DNA of 64,000 nt from a virus (taxonomy: Duplodnaviria; Caudoviricetes). The notes under the pieces are model-generated. The model saw nothing but the letters and a program-made list of their open reading frames with translations. It had not been told where the DNA came from and searched no databases. Positions 48,022 to 52,303 of the stretch are shown here, one piece after another. Both the position numbers and the translations under genes were made by a program. Numbering within the stretch: position 1 is the first letter of the stretch; each line of letters opens with the position of its first letter. The stretch is taken from positions 1 to 64,000 of IMG/VR virus record IMGVR_UViG_3300028591_000013; one strand, given 5' to 3'.

Positions 48022-50303
48022 ATTTATGTCCTTTTTGATATCGTCAGTGATTGACTAACGACATAAATGATACATATGTCCTCTCGGCTCGGACGTTGCC
48101 ATAAAAAATTACTACAATTCTCTCTTCAGGCTGGCTACTGTCATTATTGGCTGTACAAGATATAGTGTTTCTTATTTTGTTCTTAATCTGGTTGTGCTAT
48201 GCATATGGGAAGCGCGTTTACTTTACACACATAGTTATCAATATATTCCTCATACATCCCCTGCGAACAGGTCGTGAAAGTCATGATAACGGAGGGCCAA
48301 ACGGTATGGCACAGAATATCCATCAGTGTGAAAGGACCAAAAGCGCTAAATGCCAAGATGTGCAATCAAGCACCAAAAACGAAACACAATATTGAGTTTG
48401 GTAATATTTTGTCGAATCATATTTCCCATGCGGTACTAATCCGACGGAAGTTTGTTCGTTGGCAGCATTCCATTGACTAATGCTCAAGGCAAAATTTCAA
48501 TATTGGCTACTGTTCATAGAACTCAATAAAGTGCAGTTGGTTTTCGAGTATTTACCAAATATTTCTAAAACTTACTGCCTTACTGTTGTGACCCGGTCTT
48601 GCGATACCGAGTTAGGCACAGCTACCCCTGTTCTGGTTTTAAAGTGGTCAGAACAATCAATACCCCACCGTTTAGTTTATCAGCTTTTGGCATCTCAGGC
48701 TAAATCTAACCTGTTCATTATCGGACATGACCTAGGAGCTCCAAAACTCCATCATGGATCTACGGCTTTTTACTGTACATTCAGCTTTGCTGCTGGCTTC
48801 TGTTTATAGTGCACGAATACTGGAGGAATTCCACCTCATACGCTATAAGATTTATCACCCACTTAATGTTCCGCTTCATCGGTTTGCAGTAGTACTAACT
48901 CCATTACAGAGGTTTCATACTGTTCACTTTACCCCTCCGAGACAGGGAGGTGACTTCACTTCGCGATAAGCTGCCTTGCATCGTTTGCGTATATTGCTTC
49001 ATAGACTAAGCCGATTAGTTAGATTTGCAGTCTAACCCCTAACTATTATCTATCCTGCTACTTGCTTCTCAGGAACGGTTGGCACTCGGTTCTCTATCAT
49101 ACGTCTAAAATGGCTATGTTTCTTCAATACAACAGAAGGACACTTTTCTAAGGCGTTGAACATAACGTAATAGATTTCATAGAGGGACATCCAATTTTGT
49201 TTAATAATGTTAATTATCACACACTCGATTATTTTCACATAGTTTATCCTTATGCAATCAAGCTATACCGCACATGAGTTTACTACTCTCACTGATATAG
49301 TACAGCAGTGTTGCGAACTATGTTATTATCTTCTCGTGTCGAGCGATCTCCGTATATACTGGAGTGTATAAACTTCGAATCGACCCTAATGTAAGTTTGA
49401 ATACTTGAGTTTTGACTGTCAGGTTGTCATCCTTCGACTCCAGCATTTCCTCTGGTACATCTCCAATCTATATTACTTAACTATCGCTTACCATAGTCTT
49501 TCATAACTTTAGAATAGTCTTACTCGCGGACTTCACTCGCGTGGCATTCAAGCATCAATGCCCTACTTCGCCATAGGTAGCGCCATCTACCTAGCGGTCA
49601 TTTTCTCTTTTATATACCGAATAAACGACCAAAAGCTCATCGGTTGTCTTCATCACATTTTCCTCAGTACCCCATCCCCGGTGACCCAGTGGGACCGTAG
49701 CCTCAAAGGTGGTCATCTAGTAATCGAAACTAGAAGGATTTCTTCAAGGACCGTAGTTACGGTACGGCGTAGATTGTCAAGCCATCTACTTGGCTAATAT
49801 GCTCAGACTCGTCCCTCAATGCAGGTTTTGGAGACCTGTGACACTAGACTACAGCTAATTGTGAATTGATACATCATCCTACGTTGTGGCATATTTCGGA
49901 TGTTCAGCTCGTGTAACGTGATTTTACTACTATGTATCATTATAGTAAATCTATCGATACGGTTCAGTTTAGAGCTACTTTGAGATTACTCTCATTTCGT
50001 TTTACTCTGTGCGTCTTCCTTACTAATATCCCTCACTTCACGAGTCTGGCAAACGCATAAAGAACGTTGCTGGTATATATTAGTGTTGGGGTCTGATACA
50101 GACGCTCTCCCCACTTACTATGAACTTTTCTGTGTAGAGTATAGTTACACATCATAGCATTTCATCCTACCTTTTGGGTTTCTCACCTGTTGAGCAGGCT
50201 AACATATTCTCGGATCAAGTATATACTCTTGCGCGCCCGGCTAATGAGACCGTTTACATGGCGCTGACGGGTTGCCAAAACTGGCTAGGAAGCCAGTGAA
50301 TCC
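48022..50303 (-). ncRNA. Candidate giant structured non-coding region (about 2.3 kb)
   Basis: No credible sense-strand ORF; dense short and nested inverted repeats. Strand assumed from flanking genes. Confidence 0.45.
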
Positions 50304-50798
50304 TCACTGGCCTCCCACCCCGGAGTGATTGTCGTTTTTGGAGTATACAATCTCATCGTCGACAATGAGCTGTATAGATGTAGCTTTAGAAGCTACAACA
50401 GAGTCCTTGGGCTGCTCCTCACGACCCATTGTACTGTTGTTACTCAGAGCAAGCTTCATACTGTCTGGATTGACAGCCAAAGGATGCATTCCTGAGTCAC
50501 GTGCTGTAGTACGATCAGCAACGTCTTTATAACGAGTCTTCCAACGTATTTTGGTTTCCCATCGTACGCTATCAATGATATTGATAGAGTCTTTGACCTT
50601 GGGAGATTCGCGCGAGAGTCTCTTATCCAGATCGAACTGGACGTCGAGTGGCAATCCTGGTCTATCGAAAACGATAGGCTGTGGCACAGGTTGCGCCATC
50701 GCGACCTTGTTGCTAGGGAACTGGAAGTTCTGAAACGCGGTTGCACAACCGAGAATCATCATAGCAACGCAACAGATAATTGTTGTTAATCGTCTCAT
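50304..50798 (-). CDS. Putative exported protein or lipoprotein, 164 aa
   Basis: MRRLTTIICCVAMMILGC signal peptide / lipobox-like N-terminus. Confidence 0.7.
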   Translation of the reverse strand: MRRLTTIICCVAMMILGCATAFQNFQFPSNKVAMAQPVPQPIVFDRPGLPLDVQFDLDKRLSRESPKVKDSINIIDSVRWETKIRWKTRYKDVADRTTARDSGMHPLAVNPDSMKLALSNNSTMGREEQPKDSVVASKATSIQLIVDDEIVYSKNDNHSGVGGQ

Positions 50799-50840
50799 AC
50801 TTTGATAGCATTACTAGGCGAATACATAATCGCGAATTCC

Positions 50841-50888
50841 GCGGACAAAAGGCGTAACGCGCTCCTTAATCCGCTTTATGAGTTTTTT
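50841..50888 (-). other. Predicted -1 ribosomal frameshift signal
   Basis: In-frame A AAA AAC (50888-50882), 7-nt spacer, then hairpin GCGGAT…GTCCGC (50874-50841). Confidence 0.6.
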
Positions 50889-52303
50889 GACTCGCCCTCA
50901 CTTTCATCGGCCTTCTTCTCTACAGTGCCAAATTCGATAAGATTGCTCTCAGAGTAATCATCGCTCTTAGCAAGAGGAGAACTGAACATATTCAGGATAA
51001 TACCAGCACGCTGCTGAACGTTCAACAGAGCAGACTCAAACTCCAGCTCAGGAATCTCCACATCACTGTAATAAGTGTTGAAGATCTCCTTCTTTATAGC
51101 GCAAGCACTAATATAATTAGCGTTGGTCTTATCGTTATAAATAGCGATGAAGTTGTCTACAACGTCGAACGACGGGTCTGTTACCAGAGAGATCATACCA
51201 GTGAAGTGTGCAATAGCACTCTTCAGACCAGCAATCTTCTTGGTCTCAGTTTCGATACCCTTGGCATTAGCCTTCTCATCCTTCTTCAGGACTTTGATGT
51301 TCTCTTCCTTAGCCTTTATGGCTTCACTCATCTCTGCGTTCTTTGCAGAAACATACCATACGATAAGCACGCGAACCAACGATGCAATCGTCGCATCATC
51401 ATACTTATACTGCTTGGTCTTCTTATTGTAGAGACAGTTCTTGAATCCACAGAAGGCAGGAATAACACTGTTAGCATCTTCTGCGAGAGTGCACAGACGC
51501 TTGCCGAATCCCGTAAGCACAAAGGTCGGTTTGACCATTGTAATAACGTCCTGAAGGAGAGCAGCGAGATCGAGCTCGTGCACCTTAGCAAGTTCAGCTT
51601 CCGAGTTCTCGGCATTAGAGGCGCGGAATTCCTTATAGGATCTGTAGAACTGAGCTGTTGTGATAAGACGCTCAATCGGATTAGTGATCGCGGGGTTAAG
51701 GAGTTGAAACTCAAGCGCCTCCTTCAACTGATCATCAGTCTCAATCTTAGTGTGGTCCTTGGTATAATCCTTATTCTTAGCGTTCTCTATCGCAGCATGT
51801 TCAGCTTTCTTCTTCTCCTTTGCCTCTTTGGTTATATTCTTATCTTCGATCTGCAACATCACCTGATTAGGTGCTGCACTAAGACCAGCCTGTGCGAGCT
51901 GTTCTTTCGTAGGCTTCGGAAGGGACTCATAGCTGGGTACGTTAACACCCATGTCCTTTGCAAGAGGTACAAATACACCCTCATAGTTAGCCTTATTGAT
52001 AGTAAGAATACTTCCAACTGGGTTCTTGCGAATCACTACCTCTGTTAAAGTAGTGTCAAGAAACAGAGCATCCTCAAGAAGCGTAAGAGCCTTATACTTC
52101 TCAGGGTTGTTCTCATTATTCTTCAGCATCTCATCCTTTCTATGCTGAGCATACCCGATCATGTCAGCTTTGTGATTCTGATCAAGACCGCTGGGAATAC
52201 CAGGGATCTCAACCTTTGCCTCAGTAGTAGCAGGAACAGTATCTTCCTTCTTTTCTACCACAGGAGCTTCTACTTCGGGCATTTTTTTCTTGTCTTTTGC
52301 CAT
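50876..52303 (-). CDS. Hypothetical protein, 475 aa (possible frameshift-extended isoform to 50814/50811)
   Basis: Long clean ORF with high-expression-type codon usage. Confidence 0.85.
   Translation of the reverse strand: MAKDKKKMPEVEAPVVEKKEDTVPATTEAKVEIPGIPSGLDQNHKADMIGYAQHRKDEMLKNNENNPEKYKALTLLEDALFLDTTLTEVVIRKNPVGSILTINKANYEGVFVPLAKDMGVNVPSYESLPKPTKEQLAQAGLSAAPNQVMLQIEDKNITKEAKEKKKAEHAAIENAKNKDYTKDHTKIETDDQLKEALEFQLLNPAITNPIERLITTAQFYRSYKEFRASNAENSEAELAKVHELDLAALLQDVITMVKPTFVLTGFGKRLCTLAEDANSVIPAFCGFKNCLYNKKTKQYKYDDATIASLVRVLIVWYVSAKNAEMSEAIKAKEENIKVLKKDEKANAKGIETETKKIAGLKSAIAHFTGMISLVTDPSFDVVDNFIAIYNDKTNANYISACAIKKEIFNTYYSDVEIPELEFESALLNVQQRAGIILNMFSSPLAKSDDYSESNLIEFGTVEKKADESEGESKNS

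Follow-up and report, generated by a model that had tools for sequence, protein, structure and literature searches.

The window analysed here is a whole stretch of 64,000 nucleotides of viral DNA, and the genome it comes from is that of a rumen crAss-like phage. One gene on its minus strand encodes a protein of 475 amino acids (aa), and the last codons of this gene are TCA AAA AAC TCA TAA. The features at the 3' end of the gene and just downstream of it are as follows:

50876..52303, minus strand: coding sequence of 475 aa in the 0 frame, ending ...GESKNS (ORF translation)
50882..50888, minus strand: slippery heptamer A AAA AAC, in X XXY YYZ phase with the 0 frame (read from the sequence)
50875..50881, minus strand: spacer TCATAAA, 7 nt from heptamer to hairpin (sequence and fold)
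50876..50878, minus strand: 0-frame stop TAA, one codon past the heptamer (sequence)
50841..50874, minus strand: stem-loop of 34 nt, candidate 3' stimulator of frameshifting (RNA folding)
50817..50882, minus strand: -1-frame extension of 22 codons, LIKRIKERVTPFVRGIRDYVFA (translation); its first codon CUC re-reads the C of the heptamer
50811..50816, minus strand: double stop closing the -1 frame, TAG (50816..50814) and TAA (50813..50811) (sequence)
50304..50798, minus strand: downstream neighbour, ORF of 164 aa with its ATG at 50798, 12 nt past the stops of the tail

The gene end, the in-frame heptamer, the 7-nt spacer and the stem-loop were all as claimed in the preliminary description of this DNA, and the sequence also confirmed its account of a -1 frame without a start of its own, closed by TAG TAA 12 nt before the next ATG. 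In the window the -1 frame has a stop 5 codons upstream of the slip point and contains no ATG, GTG or TTG, and its open frame is 27 codons in all. Among the genes of the window, the 475-aa gene was the only credible case of a slippery heptamer at the stop. The window by itself is weak evidence for a frameshift, because the hairpin is only marginally more stable than shuffled sequences (z -1.2 to -2.3) and an open -1 frame of the same length, with at least 22 open codons past the stop, is found in 18 of the 76 ORFs of the window. The weight for frameshifting comes from the conservation of the sequence across homologs.

The 475-aa gene belongs to a minus-strand block of replication and transcription ("early") genes and not to a tail module, because a sigma-70-like factor, the DNA polymerase, tRNAs and a tmRNA share the block. 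The upstream neighbours of the gene are an ORF of 128 aa and then the sigma-70-like factor, and the DNA polymerase gene, also on the minus strand, follows about 7 kb downstream. The preliminary description had already remarked that this is not the usual tail-chaperone context for a frameshift, and the gene neighbourhood agrees with it. No tRNA-Lys or tRNA-Asn that might tune the shift is encoded in the window.

The downstream ORF of 164 aa matched no family. Its N-terminus, with a basic start, a hydrophobic run and a Cys, looks like a lipoprotein signal peptide, as far as can be read from the sequence. A similarly placed ORF with a similar N-terminus lies directly 3' of the tail in most of the printed loci. 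The next 2.2 kb or so (48058-50303) contain no ORF of at least 100 aa on either strand. At positions 1-33000 the plus strand of the window has only short ORFs under table 11 for a crAss-like phage, which fits TAG-to-Gln recoding of late genes. The gene studied here sits in a block where TAG is still a stop.

The 475-aa protein matched no family in Pfam or PHROG. It carries an acidic, disordered C-terminal linker, ending ...ESKNS. The AlphaFold2 model (32 homologs, pLDDT 75) consists of helices only; residues 303-373 form a long helical hairpin, and both ends are disordered (residues 460-475 have pLDDT <50). Foldseek against PDB gave no match for this model at E <=0.001, and a search of BFVD found uncharacterised crAss-like proteins only. 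Matches obtained with VIA-align were rejected: they covered only the long helical hairpin (303-377) with Z <=8.5, which is the background level for helical proteins. As modelled, the protein would be all-alpha with no known fold. Its nearest named relatives are "hypothetical proteins" of cr272_1, cr7_1, cr131_1 and Bohxovirus (Crassvirales, Suoliviridae, Oafivirinae).

The DNA of the 3' ends of homologs was taken from IMG/VR, JGI metagenomes and GenBank phages. The tally comprises 42 distinct loci of Crassvirales, Suoliviridae, whose proteins are about 20-96% identical to that of the window; these loci are related, so all counts are of non-independent events, spanning several genera and two subfamilies. 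The preliminary description had set the comparison of homologs as its test, and all 42 loci keep the heptamer and an open -1 frame without a start. The heptamer is in frame in each of them, as A AAA AAC in 32, A AAA AAA in nine and A AAA AAT in one. The 0-frame stop follows the heptamer directly in 17 of these loci and after one codon in the other 25.

The codons used at this site differ strongly from those of the gene bodies. The Lys codon of the heptamer is AAA in 42 of 42 loci, compared with 28% AAA among 2214 gene-body Lys codons, and the codon before it ends in A, also in 42 of 42, against a background of 22%. This A-ending codon is variable (TCA, CCA, GTA, GGA, GAA, GCA or AAA, for Ser, Pro, Val, Gly, Glu, Ala or Lys), and where it encodes Ser it is TCA in 24 of 24 loci (background 17%). 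AAG, the preferred Lys codon, was found in none of the 42 loci at the last codon of the heptamer. Because AAA is fixed, and the base before it is fixed as A despite seven different residues, the constraint acts on nucleotides and not on amino acids alone.

At the protein level, an end of K-[NK] plus 0-1 residue was found in 118 of 120 close homologs and in 99 of 113 full-length representatives of 50%-identity clusters. The closest homologs (P0002-P0005, 74-96% identity), which were compared as proteins, have ends that agree with the window. P0002 (495 aa) was considered as a fused form and rejected, as its extra length is N-terminal and comes from an alternative start call. About five exceptions to the K-[NK] ending seem to come from gene calling in which the 0-frame TAG was taken for Gln. 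P0008 and several other odd-ended representatives were also considered as products of the -1 frame, and they were discarded as looking like such TAG-to-Gln read-through calls. Six calls in total (P0008, P0148, P0171, P0207, P0212, P0221) were apparently made with TAG as Gln and show spurious 0-frame tails past TAG. In 10 of the 42 loci the 0-frame stop is TAG, and a third isoform could in principle arise there if the phage suppresses amber codons late in infection.

Among sites of this kind in E. coli, A AAA AAG shifts most readily, because both Lys codons are decoded by a single tRNA-Lys; A AAA AAC shifts much less, and organisms with a separate AAG-reading tRNA behave differently at such sites (PMC5009743). 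The complete avoidance of AAG in the family would fit hosts which have a separate AAG-reading tRNA. Since A AAA AAC is much less shift-prone in E. coli, the efficiency at the site described here may be low.

The -1 frame past the slip site is open in 42 of 42 loci, for 16-62 codons, and ends shortly before the ATG of the next gene. Upstream starts in this frame (ATG, GTG or TTG) were found in none of the 31 loci checked. The clade of the window has 17 distinct tails, and all of them are exactly 22 codons long with zero indels, unlike the acidic 0-frame linker just upstream of the slip site, which varies in length and sequence. Over these 17 tails the entropy by codon position of the -1 frame is 1.01 at the third, 0.79 at the first and 0.59 at the second position. 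The synonymous share of differing codon pairs is 0.27 in the -1 frame versus 0.18 and 0.10 in the other frames, both of which contain stops across the tail region in the sequences checked.

The C-terminus of the tail is kept as R-D-Y-[IV]-F-[AV] in the clade of the window. Arg17 is retained through CGC, AGA, CGA, CGG and CGT, and Tyr19 and Phe21 are invariant with both synonymous codons in use. By these measures the -1 frame varies like a coding sequence, which points to purifying selection on the trans-frame peptide. More distant clades carry different tails, and many of the printed ones end in an aromatic-hydrophobic motif.

The tail had been described as basic and amphipathic, and the first property held throughout: the net charge was +1 to +7 in 23 of 23 tails examined, with +4 for the tail of the window. 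The second held in part. The hydrophobic moment ranged from 0.36 to 0.77 over the 23 tails, and the share of shuffles reaching the observed value ranged from 0 to 0.41, so that the tails examined are only modestly more periodic than shuffles, with an amphipathicity that is clear in some and ordinary in several relatives. The tail of the window has a hydrophobic moment of 0.71, which 2% of shuffles reach. It is predicted to be basic and partly amphipathic, and it ends D-Y-V-F-A.

The hairpin of the window has stems of 6, 4 and 3 bp and a loop of 5 nt, and the segment of 61 nt containing it folds at -16.7 kcal/mol. Most lineages of Oafivirinae have hairpins of unrelated sequence at the same position, with -11 to -20 kcal/mol. 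As read from the folds, the main stem begins about 5-8 nt past the heptamer in the hairpin-bearing relatives, and in relatives with weaker outer pairs the first paired column is 1-4 nt past it. An Rfam scan of 50700-51000 found no known frameshift element or other family.

Conservation of the hairpin was another check named in the preliminary description, and it was borne out for most lineages of Oafivirinae. In a gap-free alignment of 17 distinct sequences, 77.9% of the cells of the 12-pair helix are paired, and when the 3' partners are slid by 1-3 columns only 21-49% are. Seven of the 12 pairs have changed on both sides, and one of them shows GC, UA, CG and AU. The covariation score is 0.46 versus 0.23 for shuffles, and 0 of 500 shuffles reached it. 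These compensatory changes indicate, at the level of sequence, that the hairpin covaries. The z score is below -2 in 26 of the 38 loci with an A-run of at most 7. A significant hairpin is absent in one sub-clade (L032, L034-L040), where the heptamer and a long tail are kept, and in the loci with long A-runs described below.

We therefore turn to the reading that we consider the best explanation, with a probability of roughly 0.8: a programmed -1 ribosomal frameshift in the last codons of an early gene that is conserved in Suoliviridae. This reading, which was also that of the preliminary description, gains its support from the comparative evidence. It is favoured because the heptamer is phased in 42 of 42 loci, the open -1 frame has no start, the hairpin covaries and the tail evolves like a coding sequence. 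Programmed -1 ribosomal frameshifting is defined by just such an anatomy, with a heptamer in phase, a short spacer after it and a covarying structure on the 3' side.

In such a mechanism most ribosomes would read ...S-K-N-S and stop, giving the 475-aa protein. Some ribosomes would pause on A AAA AAC, held up by the hairpin 7 nt downstream, which is hard to unwind. The Lys and Asn tRNAs would then re-pair one base back (AAA AAA), and translation would go on for 22 codons in the -1 frame, giving a predicted isoform of 474 + 22 = 496 aa. This isoform would differ solely by its basic, partly amphipathic tail, joined via the acidic disordered linker. In one point the preliminary description needs correction: plain -1 translation suggests K-K-L at the junction, and the standard tandem-slip model keeps the Asn, giving ...S-K-N-L-I-K.

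Transcriptional slippage is the strongest competitor of ribosomal frameshifting, and we regard it as unlikely for the window. Here the polymerase would add one A on the A-run, and plain translation would make the same extended protein with a K-K junction, so the outcome for the reading frame is identical; the residue at the junction would discriminate between the mechanisms by mass spectrometry. Runs of about 9 A or T are the length known to be prone to slippage, and the six A's of the window are well under the documented lengths (PMC5009743). A homopolymer of at least about 8-9 A or T at the shift point occurs only in the Loutivirinae relatives (A8-A10), and the window has A6. A run length that differs by one base between relatives (L041, cr53_1, L059) would also suit slippage. 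Slippage needs no frame phasing, no fixed seventh base and no covarying hairpin after a short spacer, and all of these are conserved.

Logan contigs from RNA libraries are also relevant here. Sheep-gut contigs from two studies (X15 and X16 from one sample, and X18) run through the site into the next gene, and a further RNA run covers the downstream part of the site only. The A-run in the X15, X16 and X18 contigs shows no indel, which speaks against slippage to the extent that contigs, which drop minority variants and leave parts uncovered in some runs, represent the transcripts. The dominant RNA form is A6.

The case for slippage is better within the Loutivirinae. We compared structure by A-run length. 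The 38 loci with at most 7 A have a median MFE of -14.6 kcal/mol and a median z of -2.6, and the four loci with 8-10 A, all Loutivirinae (cr4_1, cr56_1, cr109_1 and cr52_1; loci L054, L056, L057 and L058), have medians of about -4 kcal/mol and about 0 (MFE -3 to -6 kcal/mol, z about 0). In these four the A8-A10 run abuts the stop, and the -1 tail is basic and aromatic with 16-24 aa. Because the runs are A8-A10 and no significant structure lies downstream, these relatives may use transcriptional (polymerase) slippage instead of frameshifting.

Beyond the 42 loci, four depart from the heptamer pattern: L041, cr53_1, cr124_1 and L059. L059 (1980-2380) and P0226, which share 70% identity, both have the basic tail continuing the frame of the body, owing to an A9 run. 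It means that the extended protein is made directly in at least one lineage. P0269 is a possible second in-frame fusion. In L041 (1950-2240) and L055 (cr53_1) the A-run has one A fewer than that of close relatives and the tail is in the +1 frame, which is either a homopolymer assembly error or genuine variation. In cr124_1 (L029:2760-3000, NC_055899.1) a deletion takes out the heptamer together with the basic linker, about 11 residues from the start of the tail are fused in frame, and a further 1-nt deletion shifts the rest. The deposited CDS of cr124_1 (518 aa) reads through TAG and overlaps the start of the next gene.

A mosaic pattern was seen in another group. L005 and L022 (one contig of 106,598 bp present in two collections) and L020 have bodies 47-49% identical to that of the window, and from just past the 0-frame stop their tail, hairpin and start of the downstream gene are identical in DNA to the window (50740-50888). 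The pattern points to recombination with a breakpoint at the slip site or close to it. The RNA-library contigs show many differences from the window upstream of 50876 and none in 50811-50875.

A second alternative holds that no recoding takes place, the -1 frame being open by chance and the region being conserved as a hairpin for RNA stability or processing, as a weak terminator or as a promoter for the downstream gene. In its favour, open -1 frames are frequent in the window (the 18 ORFs given above), and the conserved 3' end of the tail region, immediately ahead of the next gene, is rich in A and T. We nevertheless hold this alternative to be very improbable. It leaves the phased heptamer and the constraint at synonymous sites unexplained. 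Nor does it account for the 17 diverged tails of 22 codons, which show no indel or stop, variation biased to the third position and an Arg kept by several codons, for a tail frame kept over 16-62 codons across the family, or for the in-frame fusion in L059 and P0226.

As for a terminator, the main hairpin was rejected as a candidate, since no U-tract follows it. A small terminator-like hairpin lies at 50843..50831 and could be counted for termination. This element (50831..50843, minus strand) was flagged in a scan as a GC-rich stem-loop of 5 bp with a T-rich stretch after it. It lies inside the codons of the tail, where it shares sequence with the 3' arm of the main hairpin, and it is not conserved in relatives. 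The RNA contigs that cross the hairpin speak weakly against a terminator.

Least probable of all is a separate small protein made from the tail by independent initiation or termination-reinitiation: in the window and in several relatives the 5' arm of the hairpin does contain an AAGGAG-like sequence, but in the -1 frame the 31 loci checked have no ATG, GTG or TTG upstream of the slip point or in the first 11 codons of the tail, later starts are inconsistent from locus to locus, the -1 ORF of the window is just 27 codons, and the slip site is located exactly where the two frames must join.

Taking the programmed frameshift as the preferred reading, we infer that the slippage is ribosomal and that its efficiency would set the ratio of tethered to free protein. 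Our best guess, made by analogy, is that through the tail some of the protein is tethered to the membrane or to a partner; membrane targeting and docking to a partner protein are equally possible roles. A broader idea, which we put forward as speculation and hold to be rather doubtful, is that the tail is a family-defining module reached in three interchangeable ways (frameshifting with a hairpin at A6-7, probable slippage at A8-10 without a hairpin, and fusion at A9), setting the membrane- or partner-tethered share of a core early protein. In this view the proportion of the isoforms could also follow how actively the infected cell translates, since the site depends on the decoding of Lys and Asn, in a phage with its own tmRNA and tRNAs.

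Few viruses of the animal and human gut are as abundant as crAss-like phages, and for most of their early genes no function is known. In the literature we found no description of frameshifting in an early gene of a crAss-like phage; Yutin 2021 mentions only disrupting frameshifts in RNAP genes. In all six deposited homolog records with flanks the gene is annotated as "hypothetical protein", and five of these GenBank records treat the tail region as intergenic; in the sixth, cr124_1, the CDS runs through it. The site seems to be a previously undescribed and well-supported new case of a known type of recoding.

If this is true, many genomes of Suoliviridae encode an extra isoform that is not annotated. 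Annotation pipelines would need correction, and so would the gene callers whose reading of TAG as Gln yields spurious read-through tails. It would also give a new natural example of one gene family with apparently three routes (frameshift, slippage and fusion) to the same product. To our knowledge, frameshifting has hardly been studied in Bacteroidota hosts, and the absence of AAG at the site is a testable statement on the rules for slippery sites in these hosts.

Among the closest known systems is the insertion sequence IS1. The heptamer of IS1 InsAB', the subject of work by Sekine and Ohtsubo in 1989, is reportedly A AAA AAC. In IS1 the shift joins a DNA-binding ORF to a transposase domain, and it occurs at very low efficiency. 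The site described here is like that of IS1 InsAB' in the identical heptamer, in being read by bacterial ribosomes and in having a 0-frame stop close by. It is unlike it in that a 22-aa tail is added to a phage protein without similarity to transposases (Pfam, PHROG) and in that a covarying 3' hairpin is present; a fusion of a DNA-binding ORF and a transposase domain was not found, and only the heptamer is common to both. IS1 frameshifting is listed in a review (PMC5009743).

The dnaX gene with its tau and gamma products (A AAA AAG plus a hairpin in E. coli) shares with the present gene a heptamer in a Lys run, a stem-loop a few nt downstream and isoforms that differ at the C-terminus. In some bacteria dnaX is "reversed", with a stop directly past the shift site and the long form made via shifting, and across dnaX genes frameshifting and polymerase slippage are interchangeable, the A9 run of Thermus being a case of transcriptional slippage (PMC5009743). 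The family described here resembles dnaX overall in being split into A6-7 loci with a hairpin and A8-10 loci without one. It differs from dnaX in showing no DnaX homology (no Pfam match) and in never having AAG at the last codon.

In phage T7 the slippery site is G GUU UUC in the major capsid gene, and the stimulator is distant. Our case is like gene 10 of T7 and T3 in that a phage gene has a -1 shift near its 3' end which adds a short C-terminal extension; it is unlike T7 in that the gene is a non-structural one of the early block, the site is an A-run and the hairpin is adjacent. In the gene 10A/10B system of T7 and T3, the -1 shift near the 3' end adds the short C-terminal extension to a minority of the molecules (PMC5009743).

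The tail assembly chaperone pair G/GT is likewise a conserved -1 frameshift in dsDNA phages. In G/GT the frameshift sets a fixed ratio of isoforms. Unlike G/GT, the gene described here lies beside a sigma-like factor gene in the polymerase block and not among tail genes, and a short tail is added, not a domain; its neighbours and the family searches (Pfam, PHROG) gave no chaperone family.

Finally, the extended protein would be comparable with MinD and FtsA and their membrane-targeting helices. By analogy, it would combine a folded body, a flexible linker and a short C-terminus which is cationic, partly amphipathic and rich in aromatic residues. Unlike MinD and FtsA, the amphipathicity is clear only in some relatives, and the tail here would be attached conditionally, by recoding.
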